In this document: positions 5,651-48,549 of the stretch, piece by piece
Layout: each line of letters opens with the position of its first letter
How positions within the stretch are numbered: position 1 is the stretch's first letter
Notes under the pieces: generated by a model
Databases searched by the model: none
Told to the model about the DNA's origin: nothing
The model's input: only the letters and a program-made list of their open reading frames with translations
DNA from: Acidobacteria bacterium AH-259-O06
GTDB taxonomy: Bacteria > Acidobacteriota > UBA6911 > RPQK01 > JADFOI01
Direction: 5' to 3'
Assembly: GCA_027717865.1 (NCBI GenBank)
Contig: JALLOM010000001.1
Coordinates: forward strand, 1-48,578
Length of the DNA: 48,578 nt
Made by a program: the position numbers and the translations under genes

Positions 5651-5877
5651 GCCAGGAGCCAGGAGCCAGGAGTCAGAAGCCAGGAGCCAGGAGCACAGGA
5701 GCCAGGAGCACACGAGACAGAATTCAGAATGCAGAAGATTCATTAACAGGTCCAAGCCACATCAGAGCTGAGAAGCTCAAAAGCTCAATAGCTCGAAAGC
5801 TCAATAGCATGAAACCTGGAACCTTCAACCTTCAACTTTCAACCATTCTGGCTCCTGACTCCTGGCTCCTGGCTCCT
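5651..5877. repeat. Mosaic repeat locus: (GCCAGGA)n left arm, (AGCTCAAN)4, (AACCTTC)3, (TGGCTCC)4 right arm
   Basis: Left arm 5651-5736 has about 12 units that decay into CAGAA-type units. An 8-bp-period AGCTCA block is at 5774-5805. ACCTTCA units are at 5821-5841. The right arm at 5849-5876 is complementary to the left arm. Confidence 0.9.
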
Positions 5878-7443: not shown

Positions 7444-7493
7444 TCGTTCTCCGTCGTTTCAATCTTGACGAAGCTCTTGAGCTATGAGCTAGG

Positions 7494-7591
7494 GTAGGGG
7501 CGAGCCGGTGGCTCGCCCGAACAGTTCTCCCTAGATGATAAGCTTATCATCTAGGGAGAACTGTTCGGGCGAGCCACCGGCTCCCCCCTAC
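7494..7591. repeat. REPIN-like 98-bp palindrome: two inverted GTAG-headed REP-like units
   Basis: GTAGGGGCGAGCCGGTGGCTCGCCCGAACAGTTCTCCCTAGATGATAAG and its reverse complement are centred on AAGCTT (one mismatch). Each arm holds its own 9-bp hairpin GGGCGAGCC/GGCTCGCCC. Flanked by TGAGCTA units (7471-7493) and CCTGGCT heptamers (7592-7616). Confidence 0.9.
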
Positions 7592-8918
7592 CCTGGCCCC
7601 TGGCTCCTGGCTCCTGTAAGTCGGGAATCCGCCGGATCACGTCCATAAAGGAGGAAACCGAGAAAACCGCATTTCCAATACCGGGCTTTCCATACCCGGG
7701 TGGCGCATCAAGTTCATACTTTTCATGTGTCTCTCTCCAGGCACGGAGAAGACGAACGTGATACTCGAGAGGAGCCCCTTCTGGATTGAGTTTCCCTAGA
7801 ATACTCAGAGGTTCCGGGCACCACGTTGTGAAGCGAGGAGTAATGCCCTGAGACATGAAAAAGTCCAATCCTTCAGAGGTGGAAGCGACGGCCTCATCTA
7901 CGGTTTCAAAACCGCAGGGCCGAGCCATTTCGATTCCGGCCACGAAATTAGGAATAACACAAGAAGGACCAAGGACTTCCGCGGCATCCAGAATGCGGCG
8001 AATCCACTCGTCACGACCGATGCAACGGTTCTTCCCCGCGCAGATAATTTCAAAGAGCCGCCGGTCCCAGACTTCATAGTTTGGATGGTAGATCTGCACA
8101 CCCACATCCCTGAATCGACACACTTCTTCCCTAGGCAAGGCCTGGACCACCACCTTTGCTATCCACCGACCCGGGAATCGCTTCTCAATCGCTTCCGGGT
8201 ACTGAACATAAAAATCAATCTCACGCATTCCGTTGAGTTGGGAGGTAATGCTTCCTCCTGTCACGGTGTAAGCCTGGCTCTCGGAATCAGCATCGTTGAC
8301 GACTTCCAGGGCTTCCAGGATTTCCTCAACCGTCTTGATGCCAGTGTAAGACCGCCCAGTCTTCTTCTGTTGACGATAGTTCTCATTGATATCGCAGAAT
8401 TGGCACTCTTGTTGATGACCGAAGTACTGGCAAATTCTGAAGACGGTCAAATAGAGTAGATATCCCCACTCGATAGTTGGTGCAATATCCATGATCGGTT
8501 TCCCACTGGCCAGAGTTCGTTGATAATATTCCGGAGTTTTCTCAAACTGGATCCCTGAGAGCTCTTCCTTTTCCAATGTGAGGACCAAATCTGCTTGATC
8601 GGAAATATCGACCCGATAAGGAGAACGCGGATTCAATCGGACAGAAACGATGGTGCGACGAAAATTTCTCGGCCCACCGACTAGGCAGATCTCCTCGGGC
8701 GCCCGCAGGTTCTCCTGCCTCTGCATGTGAGCAATGGGGACCAAATCAAAAGAAAAGATAAAGTACGCTTTGGGCTTGAAGCCGGAAGCTACGCGCAGCG
8801 CATCCTCTGAAAAGGAGATCCCCGTTCGAAGTAGATCTTCCTTAAAGATTGCCTCCGGAGGCAAATCCGAATACTTCTCTATCAACGCGTCAACGAGCTG
8901 TAATCTCTGTACCATCAA
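7551..8918 (-). CDS. Hypothetical protein, radical-SAM-like TIM-barrel with a non-canonical Cys triad; the C-terminal ~23 aa are encoded by repeat DNA
   Basis: 455-aa ORF. Cys cluster CQYFGHQQECQFC (CX8CX2C instead of CX3CX2C), followed by TGGS and NYEVWD..LF..ICAGK...NFVAGIE segments reminiscent of BioB/HydE-type radical SAM cores. The stop codon TAG sits inside the 7494-7591 palindrome. Confidence 0.45.
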   Translation of the reverse strand: MMVQRLQLVDALIEKYSDLPPEAIFKEDLLRTGISFSEDALRVASGFKPKAYFIFSFDLVPIAHMQRQENLRAPEEICLVGGPRNFRRTIVSVRLNPRSPYRVDISDQADLVLTLEKEELSGIQFEKTPEYYQRTLASGKPIMDIAPTIEWGYLLYLTVFRICQYFGHQQECQFCDINENYRQQKKTGRSYTGIKTVEEILEALEVVNDADSESQAYTVTGGSITSQLNGMREIDFYVQYPEAIEKRFPGRWIAKVVVQALPREEVCRFRDVGVQIYHPNYEVWDRRLFEIICAGKNRCIGRDEWIRRILDAAEVLGPSCVIPNFVAGIEMARPCGFETVDEAVASTSEGLDFFMSQGITPRFTTWCPEPLSILGKLNPEGAPLEYHVRLLRAWRETHEKYELDAPPGYGKPGIGNAVFSVSSFMDVIRRIPDLQEPGARGQGRGEPVARPNSSP

Positions 8919-8938: not shown

Positions 8939-9018
8939 GGTCAGGTAGGGGCCGTGTCTTTAAAATTTAAATTTTGAGGTCAAAATTCAAATTTTAAAGA
9001 CACGGCCCCTACCTGACC
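8939..9018. repeat. 80-bp near-perfect palindrome with GGTCAGGTAGGGG termini
   Basis: 39-nt arms GGTCAGGTAGGGGCCGTGTCTTTAAAATTTAAATTTTGA with a 2-nt centre and one mismatch. Lies between the divergent starts of the 7551-8918 ORF and the TPR gene. Confidence 0.92.
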
Positions 9019-11313: not shown

Positions 11314-11564
11314 CCACAGACCAGGAGACAGAAGACAGGAGTCAGGAGACAGAAGTCAGGAGTCAGGAGTCAGAATCCAGAATTCAGAATAACTAACTTG
11401 AATTTCATGAGCTGTCCCAACCGTTCCCAGCGTCGAATGGGATGATGAGGAAAAAACTTAACTTAACTTCATGTTTTGACCAAACAATCTTCTCCTGTGC
11501 GTTCATATTCTGATCCTGTCTCCTGACTCCTGACTCCTGTCTTCTGTCTCCTGGTCTGTGGTCA
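11311..11564. repeat. Inverted heptamer arms (38 bp perfect, about 60-80 bp imperfect) enclosing a ~115-nt core; the termini include both convergent stop codons
   Basis: Left arm TGACCACAGACCAGGAGACAGAAGACAGGAGTCAGGAG... at 11311-11390. The reverse complement of 11507-11564 begins with the identical 38 nt. TGA of glmU (11311-11313) and TGA of carB (11564-11562) are the first 3 nt of each arm. Confidence 0.92.
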
Positions 11565-14789: not shown

Positions 14790-14796
14790 CGATTTT

Positions 14797-14918
14797 TAAG
14801 CTATTAAGCTTTTGAGCTAGAGTAGGGGCGAGCCGGTGGCTCGCCCGAACAGTTCTCGCTAGATGATTAGTTCGGGCGAGCCACCGGCTCGCCCCTATCC
14901 TGGCTCCTGACTCCTGAC
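14797..14918. repeat. Second, truncated copy of the GTAG-REPIN module with the same flanks
   Basis: TAAGCTA/TTGAGCTA units are followed by GTAGGGGCGAGCCGGTGGCTCGCCCGAACAGTTCTCGCTAGATGATTAG (from 14822). Next come a shortened inverted arm TTCGGGCGAGCCACCGGCTCGCCCCTAT (to 14898) and then TCCTGGC/TCCTGAC heptamers. Confidence 0.9.
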
Positions 14919-14923
14919 CCCCA

Positions 14924-16021
14924 TCACGCATCAGCGCCTTCTTTCATTAGGCGAATGAAATCGTCAAACAAATAGAACGAATCGTGTGGTCCCGGAGAGG
15001 CTTCGGGATGGTACTGAACCGAAAAAACGGGAAGATAGCGATGCCGAAACCCTTCAAGCGTCTGGTCGTTCAGGTTCATGTGAGTGATTTGAATCTCCGT
15101 GTTCTTGAGTGAGTCAGGATCAACTGCAAAACCGTGGTTGTGGGTGGTAATCTCCACTTTACTATTGATCAGGTTTTTCACCGGTTGGTTACCTCCCCGG
15201 TGTCCAAATTTCAGTTTGTAGGTTTTCCCTCCCAAGGCCAACGCCAGCAATTGGTGTCCCAAACAGATTCCGAAGATCGGTTTTTTGCCTATCAATTTTC
15301 TGAAATTCTCCACGATGTACTGCAGCGGTTCGGGGTCCCCGGGGCCGTTGGAAAGGAAAATGCCATCCGGATCCAATGCCAGTACGTCCTCAGCACTGGT
15401 CACGGCCGGAACAACAGTGAGATCACACCCTCGGCCAGCCAAGCAGCGCAATATATTCGTCTTAATGCCAAAATCATAGGCAACGACACGGAACCGAGGA
15501 TTTTCGGCAGGCCAAGTGTAGGTCTCAGTCACAGTGACGGAGCGTACATAGTCGCTTCCTTCCATAGGAGGATGCTCGTGTACTTTCCGTCCTAACGACT
15601 GCAGATCGAAATCATCCCTGGAGATAATACCGCGCATGGCTCCCCCCTCACGAATGTGGCGAACCAGGGCACGCGTATCGATCTCGGCAATACCCGGAAT
15701 GGAATTTTCTCTGAGGTAGTCATCCAAGGTTTTCTCCCCTCTCCAGTTGCTAAAAATCGGGCTGCACTGGCGCACGACAAAGCCTTCCACAAAGGGCTTT
15801 CGCGACTCGTCGTCCTCTGAATTGATCCCATAGTTCCCAATCTCCGGCTGAGTCATCACCACAACTTGGCCGGCATAGGAAGGGTCGGTCAAAACCTCCT
15901 GGTAGCCTGTCATGGAAGTGTTGAAGACCACTTCCCCCAGGCACTCCCCTTCCACCCCAAACCCAAGGCCTTCAAACAACGTTCCATCTTCCAGATAAAG
16001 AAGTGCTTTTTGCGTTTTCAT
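14924..16021 (-). CDS. carA: Carbamoyl-phosphate synthase small (glutamine amidotransferase) subunit
   Basis: 365-aa ORF with the GATase active-site region GICLGHQLL and the QYHPEA motif. Adjacent to carB. Confidence 0.95.
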
Positions 16022-16026
16022 ATGAC

Positions 16027-16214
16027 TAGAATCTAGAATCCAGAATCCAGAATCCAGAAGTCAGAATTCAGAAGCCAGAATGCTGACCACCTGACCGCCT
16101 GACCTAATGTTGTCTCTTGCTCGTTGGTCAGCCGGTCAGCCTTTCGCTTGTCCGCAGACTTATGAGTTTTCCATCTCGCCTTCTGAATTCTGGATTCTGG
16201 ATTCTGGATTCTGT
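16027..16214. repeat. Nested inverted arrays: outer (CCAGAAT)8 / (ATTCTGG)4-5, inner (CTGACC)3 / (GGTCAG)2
   Basis: Left CTAGAAT/CCAGAAT/TCAGAAT units at 16027-16082, then GCTGACCACCTGACCGCCTGACC. Complementary TTGGTCAGCCGGTCAGCC is at about 16125-16142. The right arm CTTCTGAATTCTGGATTCTGGATTCTGGATTCTG is at about 16181-16214. Confidence 0.9.
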
Positions 16215-16840: not shown

Positions 16841-16994
16841 CGGAGTTAACTCCGAAACGGATAACAGTCTTTCCTGCTTTCGTGCTGTCGTGCTTTCGTG
16901 CTGTCGGTCGCCTGAGGAGGACGCCACGACAGCACGAAGGCACGAAGGCACGAAAACACGAAAGCACGAAGTCTGTCACGCATTTCGGAGTTAC
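16841..16994. repeat. CACGAAG-family inverted heptamer arms, plus the CGGAGTTAACTCCG palindrome
   Basis: Left arm CTGCTTTCGTGCTGTCGTGCTTTCGTGCTGTCG (about 16875-16907). Right arm CGACAGCACGAAGGCACGAAGGCACGAAAACACGAAAGCACGAAG (about 16927-16971). A 14-bp perfect palindrome is at 16841-16854, and TCGGAGTTA recurs at about 16985. Confidence 0.9.
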
Positions 16995-18379: not shown

Positions 18380-18387
18380 AGGTAGGG

Positions 18388-18452
18388 GGTCAGGTATGGG
18401 ATTTTGGCATTTCGCCACTTTTGGGCGAAATGCCAAAATCCCATACCTGACC
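18388..18452. repeat. 65-bp perfect hairpin palindrome with GGTCAGGTATGGG termini
   Basis: 29-nt arms GGTCAGGTATGGGATTTTGGCATTTCGCC with a 7-nt loop. It shares its terminal 13 nt (one substitution) with the 8939-9018 element but has a different core. Lies between the pyrH stop and the frr start. Confidence 0.92.
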
Positions 18453-18468
18453 CCGAATCCCCCCGGGG

Positions 18469-22130: not shown

Positions 22131-22215
22131 GCCACAGACCACAACTGAAAACTGACAACTGACAACTGACAGCTGACAACTCAACTGACAGCTGACAACT
22201 GACAGCTGTCAGCAG
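22131..22215. repeat. CTGACAR heptamer array (about 10 units) ending in the GACAGCTGTC palindrome
   Basis: GCCACAGACCACAACTGAAAACTGACAACTGACAACTGACAGCTGACAACTCAACTGACAGCTGACAACTGACAGCTGTCAGC. Lies in the divergent rplM / pilM upstream region. The leading CCACAGACC also heads the 11311 array. Confidence 0.9.
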
Positions 22216-27482: not shown

Positions 27483-27698
27483 GTGAGAATTCAGAATTCA
27501 GAAGTCAGAATTCAGAAGTCAGAATTCAGAATTCAGAATTCAGAAGTGAGAACCCAGAAGCTCTCAGGAGTCACGGTGCAAACAAGGGAAGCCATGTGTA
27601 AAGCTCCGATCCAGTGCCAGATCGCACAGTAAGTTCGACATGCAATGTTAAGTCTTCTGGATTCTGGATTCTGGATTCTGGATTCTGACTTCTGGATT
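27483..27698. repeat. Inverted heptamer arms, (TTCAGAA/GTCAGAA)11 and (ATTCTGG)6, around a ~95-nt unique core
   Basis: Left arm 27483-27559, right arm 27654-27698. Located between the M24 peptidase stop and accB. Confidence 0.92.
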
Positions 27699-29589: not shown

Positions 29590-30960
29590 ATGAGAGAAAA
29601 TCGTTCCAACCGAGGTGTTTGGGGATCAAAAATTGGATTCACCTTGGCGGCGGCAGGATCTGCCATCGGCTTGGGAAATATTTGGCTATTTCCGACAGTA
29701 GCGGGACAGAACGGCGGGGCTGCCTTCGTTTTAATTTATGTGGGTTGTGTGCTTCTAATTGGTGTTCCAGTTATGATCGCGGAGCTTTCTCTGGGTCGGA
29801 GAGCGCAAAGTGATCCGGTGGGTACCTTTAAATCGCTTGCCCCAAAAACATGGTGGAAAGCCGTGGGCGCCCTCGGAGTTTTTACCGGGTTCATGATCCT
29901 CAGTGCCTATACCGTAGTGGCGGGATGGACCGTGAAATATATTCTAATTACCGTTAGTGGCCAATTTGCCGGGGCCAATCCGGAAAGCATTGGGAGGATC
30001 TTTACAGAGTTTGTGGGAGATGGTTTCGCTGTCCTTTTGTATCACTTCGTCTTCATGGCGCTGACTGTCTGGATCGTCATTGGCGGTATTGAAAAAGGGA
30101 TCGAAAAAGCCACCAAGATCCTTATGCCGCTCCTGTTTGGTCTTCTCCTCCTTTTAGTTCTTCGTTCCGTCACGCTTCAGGGAGCCGTAGAGGGTGTGAC
30201 TTTTTATCTGTACCCGGATTTCAGCAAGGTCACTTTCGGCGTCATCATGGCTGCTCTGGGTCAGGCTTTTTTCTCCCTCAGTCTGGGGATGGGAGCCATG
30301 ATTACCTATGGAAGTTACCTTTCCAGAAATGACAATTTGGTCTCCAGTGCACTTTACGTCAGCCTTGCCGACACCCTGATTGCTTTCTTGGCCGGATTTG
30401 CCATCTTTCCGGCCCTTTTTTCGGTTTCCGGCCTCTCGCCGACAGAGGGCGCTTCGCTAATTTTTCTCGTCCTCCCCAACATCTTCAATGCGATCCCCCT
30501 GGGACAGCTGTTCGGGGCTGCTTTTTTCTTCCTCTTGGCCATTGCTGCTTTGACTTCAACCATTTCCCTTCTTGAAGTGGTAGTGGCCTATTTGATTGAC
30601 CAGCTGCAATGGCAGAGAAAGCTGGCGGCTTTACTGGTGGGCTCTTCCGCTTTCCTGTTGGGAATCCCCAGTGCACTGAGCAATGGCTCAGTCAGCTTCC
30701 TTTCCCAATTGTGGAAGTCCAGCCAAGAGACACTCTCATTGATGGACCTGGTCTTTCTTTACTTTGGGAAGATTTCTCTGGCAGTCGGAGCCCTTTTAAT
30801 CTGCCTTTTTGTGGGCTGGAAGTGGGGTATTCGCAGTGCCCTGAAAGAGATTCGCTCCGGTTATCCCTCCTTTGCACTGGCACCGCTCTGGACCTTTTTA
30901 GTTCGCTATGCGTGTCCGGTTGCTATCGCCATCATCCTAGCCAGCTATTTTAGATCTTGA
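29590..30960 (+). CDS. Sodium-dependent transporter, neurotransmitter:sodium symporter (NSS/SNF) family
   Basis: 456 aa with about 11-12 TM helices. N-terminal NSS signature AAGSAIGLGNIWLFP. Confidence 0.88.
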   Translation: MRENRSNRGVWGSKIGFTLAAAGSAIGLGNIWLFPTVAGQNGGAAFVLIYVGCVLLIGVPVMIAELSLGRRAQSDPVGTFKSLAPKTWWKAVGALGVFTGFMILSAYTVVAGWTVKYILITVSGQFAGANPESIGRIFTEFVGDGFAVLLYHFVFMALTVWIVIGGIEKGIEKATKILMPLLFGLLLLLVLRSVTLQGAVEGVTFYLYPDFSKVTFGVIMAALGQAFFSLSLGMGAMITYGSYLSRNDNLVSSALYVSLADTLIAFLAGFAIFPALFSVSGLSPTEGASLIFLVLPNIFNAIPLGQLFGAAFFFLLAIAALTSTISLLEVVVAYLIDQLQWQRKLAALLVGSSAFLLGIPSALSNGSVSFLSQLWKSSQETLSLMDLVFLYFGKISLAVGALLICLFVGWKWGIRSALKEIRSGYPSFALAPLWTFLVRYACPVAIAIILASYFRS

Positions 30961-31598
30961 TGCAACACCTCCAGCTGGGAAAGCTATATCCCATTACCGA
31001 TTCCAAGAACCTCAATGGTCTCAGTCATACCGAGTTGGCCAGTCATTTTCTTCACGCAGGCGTGCGTTTTTTCCAGGTGCGTGAAAAGAGCCTTTCCGAT
31101 TCCCTACTGTACGAACAACTCCTCAAGATCAAAACTCTGTGTGAGCCTCTGGGAGCTCAATTTCTGATCAATGATCGGGTGGATCTCGCTTTAGCTGTAG
31201 GAGCAAACGGGGTTCATCTGGGCCAAGACGATCTACCGGTCAAAGTGGCACGCAGGTTGTTAGGAAAGGATGCCATCATCGGCCTTTCCACGCACAATCG
31301 CCGCCAATTTCTACAAGCTCAGTCCCAAGATATCGACTACGTCGCCATCGGGCCCGTTTTCTCCACCTCCACAAAACAGACGAAAGATCCACCCTTTGGG
31401 GTCGATGCTCTCCGGGGGCTGATCCCGGAGAGTCAGCACCCAGTGGTGGCGATCGGAGGAATCTCTTTGCAAAAGGCTCCTGAGGTGTGGGCAACAGGTG
31501 CGTATTCAGTGGCAGTGATTTCCGATATTTTGAATTGCCCCCATCCAGCGGGTCGGCTGTCCCAGTATCTAGCCTTAGCCAAGGAGAGTAACGAGTGA
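30960..31598 (+). CDS. thiE: Thiamine-phosphate synthase
   Basis: LYPITD, FQVREK and INDRVDLALAVGANGVHLGQDDL motifs. The ATG at 30960 overlaps the upstream TGA (TGATG). The thiE stop overlaps the next GTG start (GTGA). Confidence 0.9.
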   Translation: MQHLQLGKLYPITDSKNLNGLSHTELASHFLHAGVRFFQVREKSLSDSLLYEQLLKIKTLCEPLGAQFLINDRVDLALAVGANGVHLGQDDLPVKVARRLLGKDAIIGLSTHNRRQFLQAQSQDIDYVAIGPVFSTSTKQTKDPPFGVDALRGLIPESQHPVVAIGGISLQKAPEVWATGAYSVAVISDILNCPHPAGRLSQYLALAKESNE

Positions 31599-34680: not shown

Positions 34681-35235
34681 ATGCTAAGTAAATACTCGAA
34701 TCCGCGGCTGATGAGCTTTACGTTTTGGAGGAAACATCCCCGTCTCAACAGGCGGCGGTATCAGTTCATCGACAGAAAGCAGCAAATTCGCTTTGCTGTC
34801 GAGCTTGGGCTTCACGCGTTGCTCTTTCCTATGCTTTTTCTGATTCTGACGCTAGCATCCCCCCTCGCCACCGTGTTGGTTGGTGAGGACGCGGAACATG
34901 CGCAACCTCTGCTGCAGCTGTTTGTTGGATTCTGTCTGGAGCACTGGTGGGTAGTGCTTCTTGCTCTTGGCTTTGTCTCGTATGTCAGTGTTTTGTTCAG
35001 CCACCGGATTTTTGGTCCTATGCGTCGCTTTGAGAATGCTCTCCTGCAGAAGAAAAACAATCCCCTGGAACCGGTGCGTTGCAGCTTGCGGCAGGGCGAT
35101 TATTTCCACAAGTTTTCCAAGCTTTTTGAAGAGGTCTTGAACGGATCCCAGGCGGTTGAAGCTCCCGGGCAGATCGTGAAAAAAAAACACACCGGAGCCG
35201 AGGAGGTTCACCCCGGGGCCTCCGATGCAACTTGA
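34681..35235 (+). CDS. Two-TM membrane protein with a HAMP-like juxtamembrane segment and no output domain
   Basis: 184 aa with two hydrophobic helices. SHRIFGPMRRFENAL after TM2 resembles the HAMP/linker motif seen in sensor proteins. Confidence 0.5.
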   Translation: MLSKYSNPRLMSFTFWRKHPRLNRRRYQFIDRKQQIRFAVELGLHALLFPMLFLILTLASPLATVLVGEDAEHAQPLLQLFVGFCLEHWWVVLLALGFVSYVSVLFSHRIFGPMRRFENALLQKKNNPLEPVRCSLRQGDYFHKFSKLFEEVLNGSQAVEAPGQIVKKKHTGAEEVHPGASDAT

Positions 35236-45919: not shown

Positions 45920-46663
45920 CTACATATACATTCCGCCGTTTATATTTAGCACATGCCCTGTTATATATCCAGCCTCTTTTGAGGCCAGGAAAAGCACACC
46001 GTAGGCCACATCCTCAACAGTACCAAACCTTGCCAGGGGAATGCTGTTTTGCAGTTCATCTCTTGCTTTGTGTCCGAGCTCAGCCGTCATGTCGGTTTCG
46101 ATGAAGCCCGGGGCAATCGCGTTGACCGTGATGTTTCGGGAAGCAACCTCACGCGCCAGTGCCTTTGTGAACCCAATGATTCCCGCCTTGCTGGCCACAT
46201 AATTCACCTGGCCGGGATTCCCCATTTGGGCCACCACCGAAGTGATGTTAATCACCCGTCCATAGCGCTGGCGAACCATCTCTGCGATGATCTCGCGAGT
46301 GACACAATAGACTCCATCCAGATTTGTTGTCAGGACTTGGCGCCAATCCTTCTCTTGCATCCGAAGCAGAAGACTGTCACGGGCAATACCCGCATTGTTC
46401 ACCAGTATGTCAACCTTCTCAAAATGCTCACCTCTGCGAGAGAGTGCGCTTTTGACCTGATCAAGCCGGCCCACATCCATCTGCACCGCCAGGGCTTCTC
46501 CACCTCTTGTGCGAATCTCCGCCGCCAAAGCTTCAATATCTGCTTGAGATCGGCTTGCCAATACCACACGGGCCCCGTGCGAGGCCAACTCTTCGGCCAC
46601 CTTTCGGCCGATCCCTCGTGAAGCCCCGGTCACCAGCGCCACTTGATTAGAAAAGTCATACAT
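45920..46663 (-). CDS. fabG: 3-oxoacyl-ACP reductase
   Basis: [23 protein letters not shown] and YVASKAG (Y-x3-K). The ATG at 46663 overlaps the fabD stop by 8 nt. The 46 upstream codons in the track are rejected. Confidence 0.93.
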
Positions 46664-48483: not shown

Positions 48484-48549
48484 GTGCCTTCGTGCTGTCG
48501 TGCCTTCGTGGCCTCGTGCGTGCTGTCAGTTACGTCACGAAAGCACGAA
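48484..48549. repeat. CTTCGTG-family heptamer array with a partial complementary arm
   Basis: GTGCCTTCGTGCTGTCGTGCCTTCGTGGCCTCGTGCGTGCTGTC followed by CACGAAAGCACGAA. The same units occur at 16875-16971 and 2644-2663. Confidence 0.88.

Follow-up and report, generated by a model that had tools for sequence, protein, structure and literature searches.

Two inverted REPs that are joined by a short spacer and fold into one long hairpin make up the REPINs of Pseudomonas fluorescens SBW25 and E. coli, where the whole unit recurs in many contexts and the transposase gene, at another place in the genome, has these REPs on its flanks (Bertels & Rainey 2011, PMC3116915). The HH dimers of the GTAG-tagged REP superfamily (Di Nocera et al. 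2013, PMC3733652) are built alike: a GTAG tag accompanies a stem of 5-13 bp with a loop of 2-20 nt, dimers with GTAG outside predominate, partners lie 20-100 bp apart, copies are occasionally intragenic or code for C-termini, and there is an association with tyrosine transposases. That survey dealt with Proteobacteria, Cyanobacteria, Chloroflexi and PVC; for Acidobacteria it gives only TIR-associated tyrosine transposases. In the E. coli REP/BIME system, which has alternating REP types, GTAG and hairpin are recognised as single-stranded DNA by a Y1 HUH enzyme, TnpA-REP (4ER8; PMC3479197). Finally, the REPs of RAYT subclass 2.4 (Quentin), or group 4 (Bertels), have a 5' GT[AG]G foot and a long canonical hairpin whose bottom three pairs are G-C, inverted copies of them flank the tnpA-REP gene, and they are scattered over many phyla (PMC6006769, PMC5581495); subclass 2.4 is also described as having stems that end in GGG/CCC at the bottom, 'double foot' forms, and REPs within the tnpA gene (PMC6006769).

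The structural features just listed, together with the transposase association and the scatter over phyla, recur in a family of elements that we describe here from a 48.6-kb stretch of Acidobacteriota DNA (the window), recognition as single-stranded DNA being a result from E. coli. Two doublets lie in the window, 7.3 kb apart. We put the probability at about 85% that both are REP inverted doublets (REPIN-like, 'head-head', with GTAG outside) of a GTAG/GTAC-tagged family with a cognate RAYT (TnpA-REP, Y1 HUH). In this sense the doublet is a real mobile palindrome of miniature size, though an unremarkable one.

The first doublet (copy 1, 7494-7591) differs from its own reverse complement at one pair only, 7501(C)/7584(C), and an earlier note on this DNA was right to call it a 98-bp palindrome with one mismatch, as it was in describing the arms as GTAG plus a hairpin with a 9-bp stem. 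Each arm consists of GTAG followed by GGGCGAGCC-GGT-GGCTCGCCC, with a loop of 3 nt: the left REP unit occupies 7494-7518 on the plus strand, and the same 25-mer is found in many genomes, while the right unit, inverted, occupies 7567-7591 on the minus strand and carries the mismatch, at 7584, in its stem. Outward of the palindrome, imperfect complementarity reaches 7479-7606 (64-nt arms, 92%). The spacer (7519-7566) is composed of GAACAGTTCTCCCTAGATGATAAG and then its own reverse complement; comparison with the second doublet reveals that the left half matches the spacer there, and that the right half is a mirror image of the left. The first doublet has become palindromised, probably through template switching or repair templated by the hairpin.

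The second doublet (copy 2, 14822-14898, 77 nt) lies inside the interval 14797-14918 to which a further copy had been assigned, and is real. A mismatch search with the 21-mer hairpin places its left REP unit at 14822-14846 (plus strand) and its right unit at 14874-14898 (minus strand), with a non-palindromic spacer of 27 nt (GAAC...GTTC) between them; the left arm is the same as that of copy 1 through GAACAGTTCTC. The feet of the two doublets read GTAG at 7494 and 14822 and CTAC at 7588, the fourth having degenerated to CTAT at 14895. With up to three mismatches allowed, the 21-mer gives seven strand-matches at four sites in the window and none in 100 shuffles, so its recurrence there is not due to chance. 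A single REP unit folded as DNA has a predicted energy of -12.1 kcal/mol (z = -5.0), with the 9-bp stem and 3-nt loop, and thereby combines the G+C-rich stem (within 5-13 bp) and single-stranded stability that characterise REPs; each of the doublets folds, on either strand, into one long hairpin (z from -12 to -20), the form that two inverted REPs with a short spacer take in REPINs.

Among GTDB genomes, at least 118 stretches contain the exact 21-mer hairpin. Its hosts include Chloroflexota MAGs (with many copies per genome), Acidobacteriota, Bacteroidota/Ignavibacteria, FCPU426, Patescibacteria and others, and in a single record, OZ242001.1, more than 20 separate 8-kb stretches carry it. Polarity is consistent: of 141 occurrences outside the window, almost every one has GTAG or GTAC 5' on the strand with the GGT loop. 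The longer 29-mer of the type seen in the window (GTAG...GAAC) occurs in 61 metagenome stretches with unrelated flanks, mostly within doublets of about 110 nt ending in CTAC, and an inverted partner lies 76-112 nt away for about two-thirds or more of its 63 occurrences in metagenome contigs. Elsewhere, the form of the family met most often pairs unlike hairpins, GGGCGAGCC with GGGTCAGCC, across a conserved spacer of about 60 nt, in which it departs both from the REPINs of SBW25 and E. coli and from the window doublets, where the arms are identical; we therefore regard the window copies as lineage-specific derivatives in which both arms carry one hairpin type. Across the sampled loci, about 45 different perfect or near-perfect stems retain their pairing behind GTAG or GTAC, which points to selection on the structure. 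In Chloroflexota many hairpin copies look like singlets, and some lie inside a longer conserved repeat. At one locus (L045) copies at 64-nt spacing are CRISPR-like at first sight; these are tandem REP-bearing repeats, with no varied spacers.

With just two doublets in the window, and these only a few kilobases apart, one could think of a purely local duplication outside any dispersed family. The exact 21-mer and 29-mer are found in hundreds of unrelated places, however, and the doublet is also present in a second Acidobacteria genome (SAG AH-259-G07), so that this account can in practice be dismissed. At the level of the family, the earlier note's preference for a dispersed family over local duplication is accordingly borne out.

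The link to a transposase comes from other genomes. In three Chloroflexota genomes (loci L007, L120 and L121) the exact 21-mer lies upstream, and an inverted copy downstream, of a gene encoding 166-170 aa that matches NCBIfam NF047646, 'REP-associated tyrosine transposase' (E 8.5e-15 to 1.3e-18). On a metagenome contig (L166) an exact 29-mer doublet lies immediately upstream of a RAYT homolog (E 2e-16), with the stem variant GGGTCGGCC/GGCCGACCC downstream, and three more RAYT homologs sit between inverted GTAG hairpins with different stem tops. When eight homologs are aligned, all of them keep the motifs NH[LFIV]H, W[QK]RNYY and YIxxNP, as expected of Y1 HUH enzymes. NF047646 is the only family matched by the RAYT-like genes (E 8.5e-15 to 4.8e-23), apart from a weak match to Pfam Y1_Tnp; its 80-bit equivalog cut-off is passed only by P0116 (81.7 bits), the rest scoring 55-67 bits. 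Some members of the protein clusters are labelled 'REP element-mobilizing transposase RayT' by JGI. The RAYT clade tied to this hairpin comprises about 2,000 clusters at E <= 1e-10, mostly unannotated by Pfam.

The hairpin-ended architecture and the weak Y1_Tnp matches of the associated genes would also suit a non-autonomous element of IS200/IS605 type (PATE/MITE), moved not by a domesticated RAYT but by a TnpA-IS200 present in many copies, whether or not TnpB accompanies it, and the Chloroflexota copies embedded in a longer conserved repeat could be read in the same way. Several observations make this very improbable. It is the RAYT model NF047646, and not IS200, that the associated genes match; no TnpB was called beside the sampled RAYT-like genes, a tblastn search with an IS200 TnpA sequence gave zero matches in the loci, and a 5' GTAG foot is the signature of REPs (PMC6006769). 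In the sampled loci, no hairpin ends were found to be shared with a multi-copy TnpA-IS200/TnpB element, as would be the case for a PATE.

A RAYT gene is absent from the window itself, in keeping with what the earlier note had stated: a tblastn search with 120 RAYT-family proteins returned only two insignificant matches, one (46020-46268) opposite an SDR gene and the other (35089-35217) within a 184-aa ORF that has neither a Pfam match nor HUH/Y motifs. A third candidate, at 30957-31598, appeared in tblastn with an E. coli RayT sequence (E 7e-4); the RAYT-family proteins give no match there and the candidate was rejected on that ground. Judged by eye, the ORF at this position is presumably thiamine-phosphate-synthase-like.

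Each REP unit thus consists of a G+C-rich hairpin of 9 bp, with GGG/CCC at its bottom and the 5' GTAG 'guide' at its foot. If the family behaves as E. coli TnpA-REP and IS200/IS605 do, the RAYT would bind the hairpin folded in single-stranded DNA, with the replication fork as the probable place, and read the GTAG; by the same analogy it would cleave and rejoin DNA via a tyrosine-DNA intermediate, so that a doublet bounded by two hairpins might be excised or copied and then placed in other intergenic DNA. The RAYT of this Acidobacteriota genome, if still present, would be encoded outside the window. Mobilisation of a REP/REPIN-type element in trans by a RAYT, as proposed earlier, gains support from the dispersed family, from the members flanking RAYT genes elsewhere and from the lack of one copy in a close relative of the window's host (see below).

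Judged on published trait descriptions, the family appears closest to the REPs of RAYT subclass 2.4 or group 4. Three traits given for subclass 2.4 (PMC6006769) are seen here: GGG/CCC throughout, double-foot forms (GTAG...CTAC), and a REP located inside a RAYT gene (P0116). The protein motifs NHLH, W[QK] and YIxxNP compare with NH[IFV]H, WQ and YIxNNP as published for subclass 2.4. The foot is not always as described, in that many Chloroflexota copies, including those that flank the RAYT gene in the three loci above, have GTAC, which is outside the GT[AG]G consensus of that subclass. The RAYT group differs from that of the SBW25 and E. coli REPINs, and unlike E. coli REPs the hairpin here has a perfect 9-bp stem without the typical bulges; likewise the match of a RAYT-like protein to E. 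coli TnpA-REP in the PDB is marginal (E 0.012). The host also sets the window apart, GTAG REPs being unreported for Acidobacteriota in the papers cited above. With the window, this phylum joins the hosts of GTAG-type REP/REPIN elements, and a single exact hairpin is linked to an extensive RAYT clade that has received little study.

The identity of the hairpin across phyla merits separate comment. The same 21 nt, with the GTAG/GTAC polarity kept, are multi-copy under at least five phylum labels (Chloroflexota, Acidobacteriota, FCPU426, Bacteroidota/Ignavibacteria and Patescibacteria) and occur under about a dozen in all, and this differs from REPINs of groups 2 and 3, which are described as lineage-specific and vertically inherited. 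The RAYTs flanked by the 21-mer are, moreover, only 43-68% identical to one another. A hairpin that is letter-for-letter the same beside proteins so diverged would follow if the RAYT-REP system spreads horizontally across phyla together with its REP, or if its DNA target has stayed unchanged while the hosts diverged very deeply. We offer this tentatively and would not put it at even odds. If true, either case conflicts with a picture of REPIN and RAYT as strictly vertical, lineage-specific partners. Hairpin identity across phyla provides a simple, testable handle on horizontal movement of RAYT-REP systems. Along with the palindromised copy and an ORF extension discussed below, this identity is a modest addition to what is known; apart from the points on hosts, RAYT clade, annotation and transfer, the element is the expected kind of bacterial repeat.

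Both doublets are bordered by short tandem arrays. Beside copy 1, AGCTCAAW-type units (7471-7493) lie toward the start of the downstream gene and a heptamer array, (CCTGGCY)n with period 7, lies on the other side (about 7591-7616); copy 2 has an octamer array at 14796-14821 (TRF period 8 at 14796-14819) and a heptamer array, again of period 7, at about 14898-14918. The earlier note had described a bracket of TGAGCTA units on one side and CTCCTGG heptamers on the other. Repeats do lie on both sides, and the second are indeed of period 7; the TGAGCTA side is really of AGCTCAAW type with a period of 7 or 8. The further point, that such a bracket sets the element apart from classical REPINs, does not hold, and the bracket is no part of the family. 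The window contains 23 short arrays of these heptamer and octamer kinds, and REPs elsewhere are mostly array-free: only 6 of 141 hairpins in genome loci and none of 63 in metagenome loci lie within 40 nt of an array, the share for positions drawn at random from these loci being about 1.3-1.5%, and on these distances we find no link between arrays and REP family. The arrays are a separate, genome-wide feature of the intergenic DNA of this lineage, resident at both sites and outside the REP family. They recall the STRR heptamer repeats that Mazel et al. reportedly described from cyanobacteria in 1990, in that tandem heptamers fill intergenic DNA and a few sequence types are reused genome-wide, and differ from them in the acidobacterial host and in the nesting of heptamers and octamers as inverted arrays around a core.

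Comparison with relatives shows that the doublets turn over. An Acidobacteriota MAG (L123) is 95% identical to the window over 9.7 kb, and the alignment breaks exactly at 14820-14943, in the spacer between carA and carB, where the MAG has no REP; members of one species-level cluster thus differ in whether this site carries the doublet. In a more distant syntenic genome (L124; carB protein 86% identical) REPs are missing at both sites. The difference in the carA-carB spacer is one of 124 nt against 217 nt in the MAG, which has a different core between its arrays, so that the event was a replacement and not a simple insertion. The octamer array beside copy 2 is homologous to an (AGCTCAAW)n array that precedes carB in the MAG, and thus predates the REP.

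These data allow a route other than RAYT transposition, in which the doublet, its REP still of RAYT-family origin, was copied between intergenic spacers of the genome, whether by ectopic recombination, by gene conversion or by template switching, with homology supplied by the flanking arrays. The two copies can be aligned past the REP feet, over about 22 nt toward the heptamers and about 25 nt toward the octamers, and the arrays are alike in type and in orientation relative to transcription; similarity that runs on for more than 20 nt outside GTAG and CTAC also fits recombination through tandem arrays, as does the replaced core in the MAG. A related pair of loci (L166/L167) shows in addition that the RAYT gene can be missing while REPs persist. 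Yet there are only a few types of array and these abound in the window, so that shared flanks may reflect coincidence or target preference, the array at carB is older than the REP, and the occurrence of the same element in unrelated, array-free flanks elsewhere means that the family spreads without arrays. We consider such copying rather unlikely. A weaker possibility is that REPINs move from one intergenic spacer to another by using the inverted arrays as landing pads or as substrates for recombination.

The positions of the doublets, copy 1 between co-directional radical-SAM and ALDH genes (in that order) and copy 2 between carA and carB, likewise co-directional, could suggest that they are primarily regulatory, stabilising mRNA 3' ends, attenuating transcription or binding proteins, and kept for function rather than mobility. 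The RNA hairpins predicted for the two copies are very stable (-83 to -129 kcal/mol), and functions of this kind are on record for the REPs of E. coli (PMC3733652, PMC3479197). On the other hand, the same spacers lack the elements in close and more distant relatives, and the same sequence occurs in unrelated contexts, in different phyla and around a transposase gene. Nor do the doublets resemble known signals: terminator and promoter readings gave zero matches, with no terminator-like site on either strand and no T-tract at either doublet locus, and no Rfam family matches at gathering score anywhere in the window. A primarily regulatory purpose is thus improbable, and a regulatory role is in any case compatible with mobility and no true alternative to the reading of these elements as mobile REP doublets.

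Copy 1 also affects the gene beside it. The radical-SAM-like ORF (7551-8918, minus strand) has its stop codon inside the palindrome, and at its 3' end (7551-7620) the heptamers and then the right arm of the REP doublet are translated, which gives the tail ...EPGARGQGRGEPVARPNSSP. The ortholog in the more distant relative (L124) ends ...MDVVRRPDLC, without the element-encoded tail. The doublets thereby account for two hypervariable intergenic spacers and for a spurious-looking C-terminal extension of 20 residues in the radical-SAM gene, which is of value for annotation. A further palindrome occupies 8939-9018; of all the loci sampled, only L027 contains it.

Both inverted doublets in the window belong to an already known kind of REP/REPIN element, and the interpretation offered in the earlier note is supported. 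As that note had claimed, the first doublet (copy 1, 7494-7591) is a 98-bp palindrome, equal to its own reverse complement save for a sole mismatched pair at 7501/7584, and each arm opens with GTAG followed by the hairpin GGGCGAGCC-GGT-GGCTCGCCC, with a 9-bp stem and a 3-nt loop; the description of 7471-7616 agrees with the sequence read there, and weaker complementarity extends outwards to 7479-7606. The reported second doublet is confirmed at 14822-14898 (copy 2): the leftmost 49 nt almost match copy 1, the 27-nt spacer is non-palindromic and the right foot is CTAT. Copy 1 amounts to a copy-2-like left half plus its own mirror image, the probable result of palindromisation through hairpin-templated repair or template switching. 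Only the four arms of these doublets match the 21-mer hairpin in the window when up to three mismatches are tolerated (0 in 100 shuffles). On either strand, as DNA or RNA, both copies fold into one long hairpin (z-scores -12 to -20). Co-directional minus-strand genes flank both doublets, copy 1 lying between a radical-SAM-like gene and an aldehyde dehydrogenase gene and copy 2 between carA and carB; no T-run follows either doublet, a terminator scan returned no sites, and no Rfam family matches anywhere in the window.

GTAG-tagged REPs, including GTAG-outside dimers and coding copies, were described by Di Nocera et al. (PMC3733652), and REPINs together with their RAYTs by Bertels & Rainey (PMC3116915); the REP/RAYT literature compared here holds no report of GTAG REPs in Acidobacteria. 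An exact scan for the 21-mer in one genome per GTDB species returned at least 118 genome stretches. Among the matches listed, Chloroflexota (Anaerolineae, Aggregatilineales, Phototrophicaceae) predominate, often with many per genome, while the 21-mer is likewise present in multiple copies in MAGs with the labels Acidobacteriota, FCPU426, Patescibacteria and Bacteroidota/Ignavibacteria and appears as single matches in several other phyla. With each hit turned to give GGT in the loop, the hairpin is nearly always preceded by GTAG or GTAC, and CTAC often stands behind it; this consistency indicates that the unit is polar, and in that respect REP-like. In the fetched loci the foot of the GGGCGAGCC stem is GTAG 145 times and GTAC 45 times. 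Some 45 distinct perfect or near-perfect stems (e.g. GGGTCAGCC, GGGCGACTC, GGGCGTTTC) stand behind GTAG/GTAC in these loci: the sequence varies, the pairing is conserved.

A 29-mer that is common to both copies (GTAG...GAAC, holding the hairpin) occurs in 61 metagenome stretches, mostly within complete elements of ~110 nt, GTAG-GGGCGAGCC-GGT-GGCTCGCCC-GAACAGTTAGGATGGCAAAACCGAAGCCACACTGGTAAAGAATGTGCCGCTCGTTCGGTTC-GGGTCAGCC-ACC-GGCTGACCC-CTAC, whose flanking sequences are many and different. The ~110-nt form is also found in Acidobacteria MAGs (L012, L052, L094), and the Acidobacteria SAG AH-259-G07 carries a version of 77 nt whose two arms are identical, as in the window. Copies 1 and 2 are therefore short forms of 'homo-arm' type, derived from a REPIN-like family. 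In Chloroflexota the hairpin often sits within a longer conserved repeat, ...AATCGAAAAGTTGTAC-hairpin-ACTCTTGC...CAATCAGTTTTCGCATGACTAACTTGGATTCAC (L008, L038, L063, L088, L090, L095, L103, L105, L112), and metagenome copies of Acidobacteria type have another longer repeat round the doublet, ...TAGCCCGGATTATGCATAGGTTCTTGTCACGAAGCGAC-doublet-GGGTACGTTGAGGAGGCCG... (L040, L044, L053, L054, L080, L117, L118); a composite or nested make-up is possible for these repeats.

The statement that the 48.6-kb window itself has no RAYT is confirmed, and RAYT-like genes adjoin the same REP in other genomes. In an Aggregatilineales locus (L007), a 166-aa ORF is bracketed by two inverted 21-mers, one ~35 nt ahead of it and the other ~20 nt behind it. 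Its match is to NCBIfam NF047646 'REP-associated tyrosine transposase', at E 8e-18, with a weak one to Pfam Y1_Tnp; it has ~2,000 relatives at E <= 1e-10, some named RayT by JGI. Two homologs on other Chloroflexota chromosomes, P0018 and P0042 (68% and 59% identical), are bracketed by the 21-mer in like fashion, and REP-bearing tandem arrays adjoin them. Such tandem units, beside RAYT genes and elsewhere on Chloroflexota chromosomes (L120 2010-2370; L121 1020-1340 and 2030-2400; L045 3050-3550), have periods of ~53, 39, 160 and 64 nt. The REPs flanking Chloroflexota RAYTs (L007 2872, L120 1441, L121 1453), like copies at many other Chloroflexota loci, have the foot GTAC, which is neither GTAG nor GTGG and so departs from the GT[AG]G consensus in the literature.

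In the metagenome locus L166, a RAYT homolog (E 2e-16) is closely preceded by two REP units of the window type, of which the second makes up a full doublet, and a stem variant, GTAG-GGGTCGGCC-GGT-GGCCGACCC-GAACAG, lies downstream. L166 (1320-2010) and L167 (700-800) are metagenome contigs of one locus, sharing the TPR gene upstream and the gene downstream, but where L166 has the RAYT gene between REPs, L167 has ~95 nt of unrelated sequence; the RAYT gene is therefore gained or lost while the REPs remain. Inverted GTAG hairpins also flank each of three homologs that are more distantly related, with stem tops particular to each. The motifs NHLH (HuH), W and YIxxNP (Y) are conserved in 8/8 homologs, and the closest solved structure, weakly matched, is E. 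coli TnpA-REP (4ER8).

Judged by published traits, the closest match among known groups would be RAYT subclass 2.4 (Quentin et al., PMC6006769), which equals Bertels group 4 (PMC5581495). This subclass is characterised by GGG/CCC at the stem bottom, double-foot forms, REPs within the tnpA gene and occurrence in many scattered phyla; a REP within the RAYT gene is reported to be unique to it (PMC6006769). The trait recurs at locus L122, where a REP (1786-1814) lies inside the RAYT homolog gene P0116 and codes for VGATRRVAPT. The published subclass motifs (NH[IFV]H, WQ, YIxNNP) are close to, but not identical with, those of the homologs here. The most interesting loose end is that the hairpin is identical letter for letter across phyla whereas the RAYTs are just 43-68% identical.

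Comparison with relatives points to turnover at the window's sites. For the carB product, identity is 97% with the counterpart in an Acidobacteriota-labelled MAG, GCA_046759565.1, and 87% with the one in Acidobacteria bacterium AH-259-D05. A stretch of the former (L123) aligns with the window at 95% identity across 9.7 kb and is interrupted exactly at 14820-14943; its carA-carB spacer holds 217 nt of inverted octamer arrays, (TTGAGCTN)n ... (AGCTCAAW)n, without a REP. As the alignment is continuous through the carB-side octamers, that flank is older than the REP. The more distant syntenic locus L124 (72% identical) has neither REPs nor arrays in either of the two spacers compared. Its radical-SAM protein ends ...RRPDLC*, whereas the window's ORF, at its 3' end (7551-7620, minus strand), reads on through heptamers and a REP arm to a stop inside the palindrome; the ancestral stop is lost and ~20 residues (EPGARGQGRGEPVARPNSSP) are gained.

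The conserved repeat flanks proposed earlier are real in that tandem arrays stand beside both copies, but they are not a feature of the REP family: 6/141 hairpins in genome loci and 0/63 in metagenome loci lie within 40 nt of an array, against ~1.3-1.5% of random positions in the same loci, which argues that arrays are a trait of the genome lineage. TRF finds 23 arrays of period 5-9, mostly 7-8, in the window; a few unit types are reused, and many arrays form inverted pairs round intergenic cores. Units CCAGGAG, CAGAATY, AGCTCAAW, CACGAARG and CAACTGA fill spacers at, among others, 106-183, 5651-5877, 11322-11553, 16028-16213, 16869-16971, 22141-22208, 27486-27698 and 48484-48519, often nested and inverted round a ~100-nt core, and arrays are likewise present in L123, of the same species. 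They are reminiscent of cyanobacterial STRR repeats, although the host here belongs to Acidobacteriota. Since copies 1 and 2 stay alike for over 20 nt within the arrays at either end, array-mediated recombination is a conceivable route by which the second copy arose, albeit one we consider improbable.

Besides the two REP/REPIN doublets, the window has a second long palindrome (8939-9018), in the spacer that separates the radical-SAM-like gene from a divergently oriented TPR gene, with 39-nt arms that are 97% complementary (DNA fold -41 kcal/mol, z = -13.6), feet GTAG...CTAC and an A+T-rich top, GGTCAGGTAGGGGCCGTGTCTTTAAAATTTAAATTTTGA plus its mirror. A 92% identical relative is found in SAG AH-259-G07 (L027 6479-6539), which has the REP doublet as well. 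A third GTAG-headed palindrome, GTAGGGGGTCAGGTATGGGATTTTGGCATTTCGCC ... GGCGAAATGCCAAAATCCCATACCTGACCCC (18381-18465), is absent at the orthologous site in L123 (2813-2830), indicating a further presence/absence polymorphism, and shares the motif GGTCAGGTA with the palindrome at 8939-9018.
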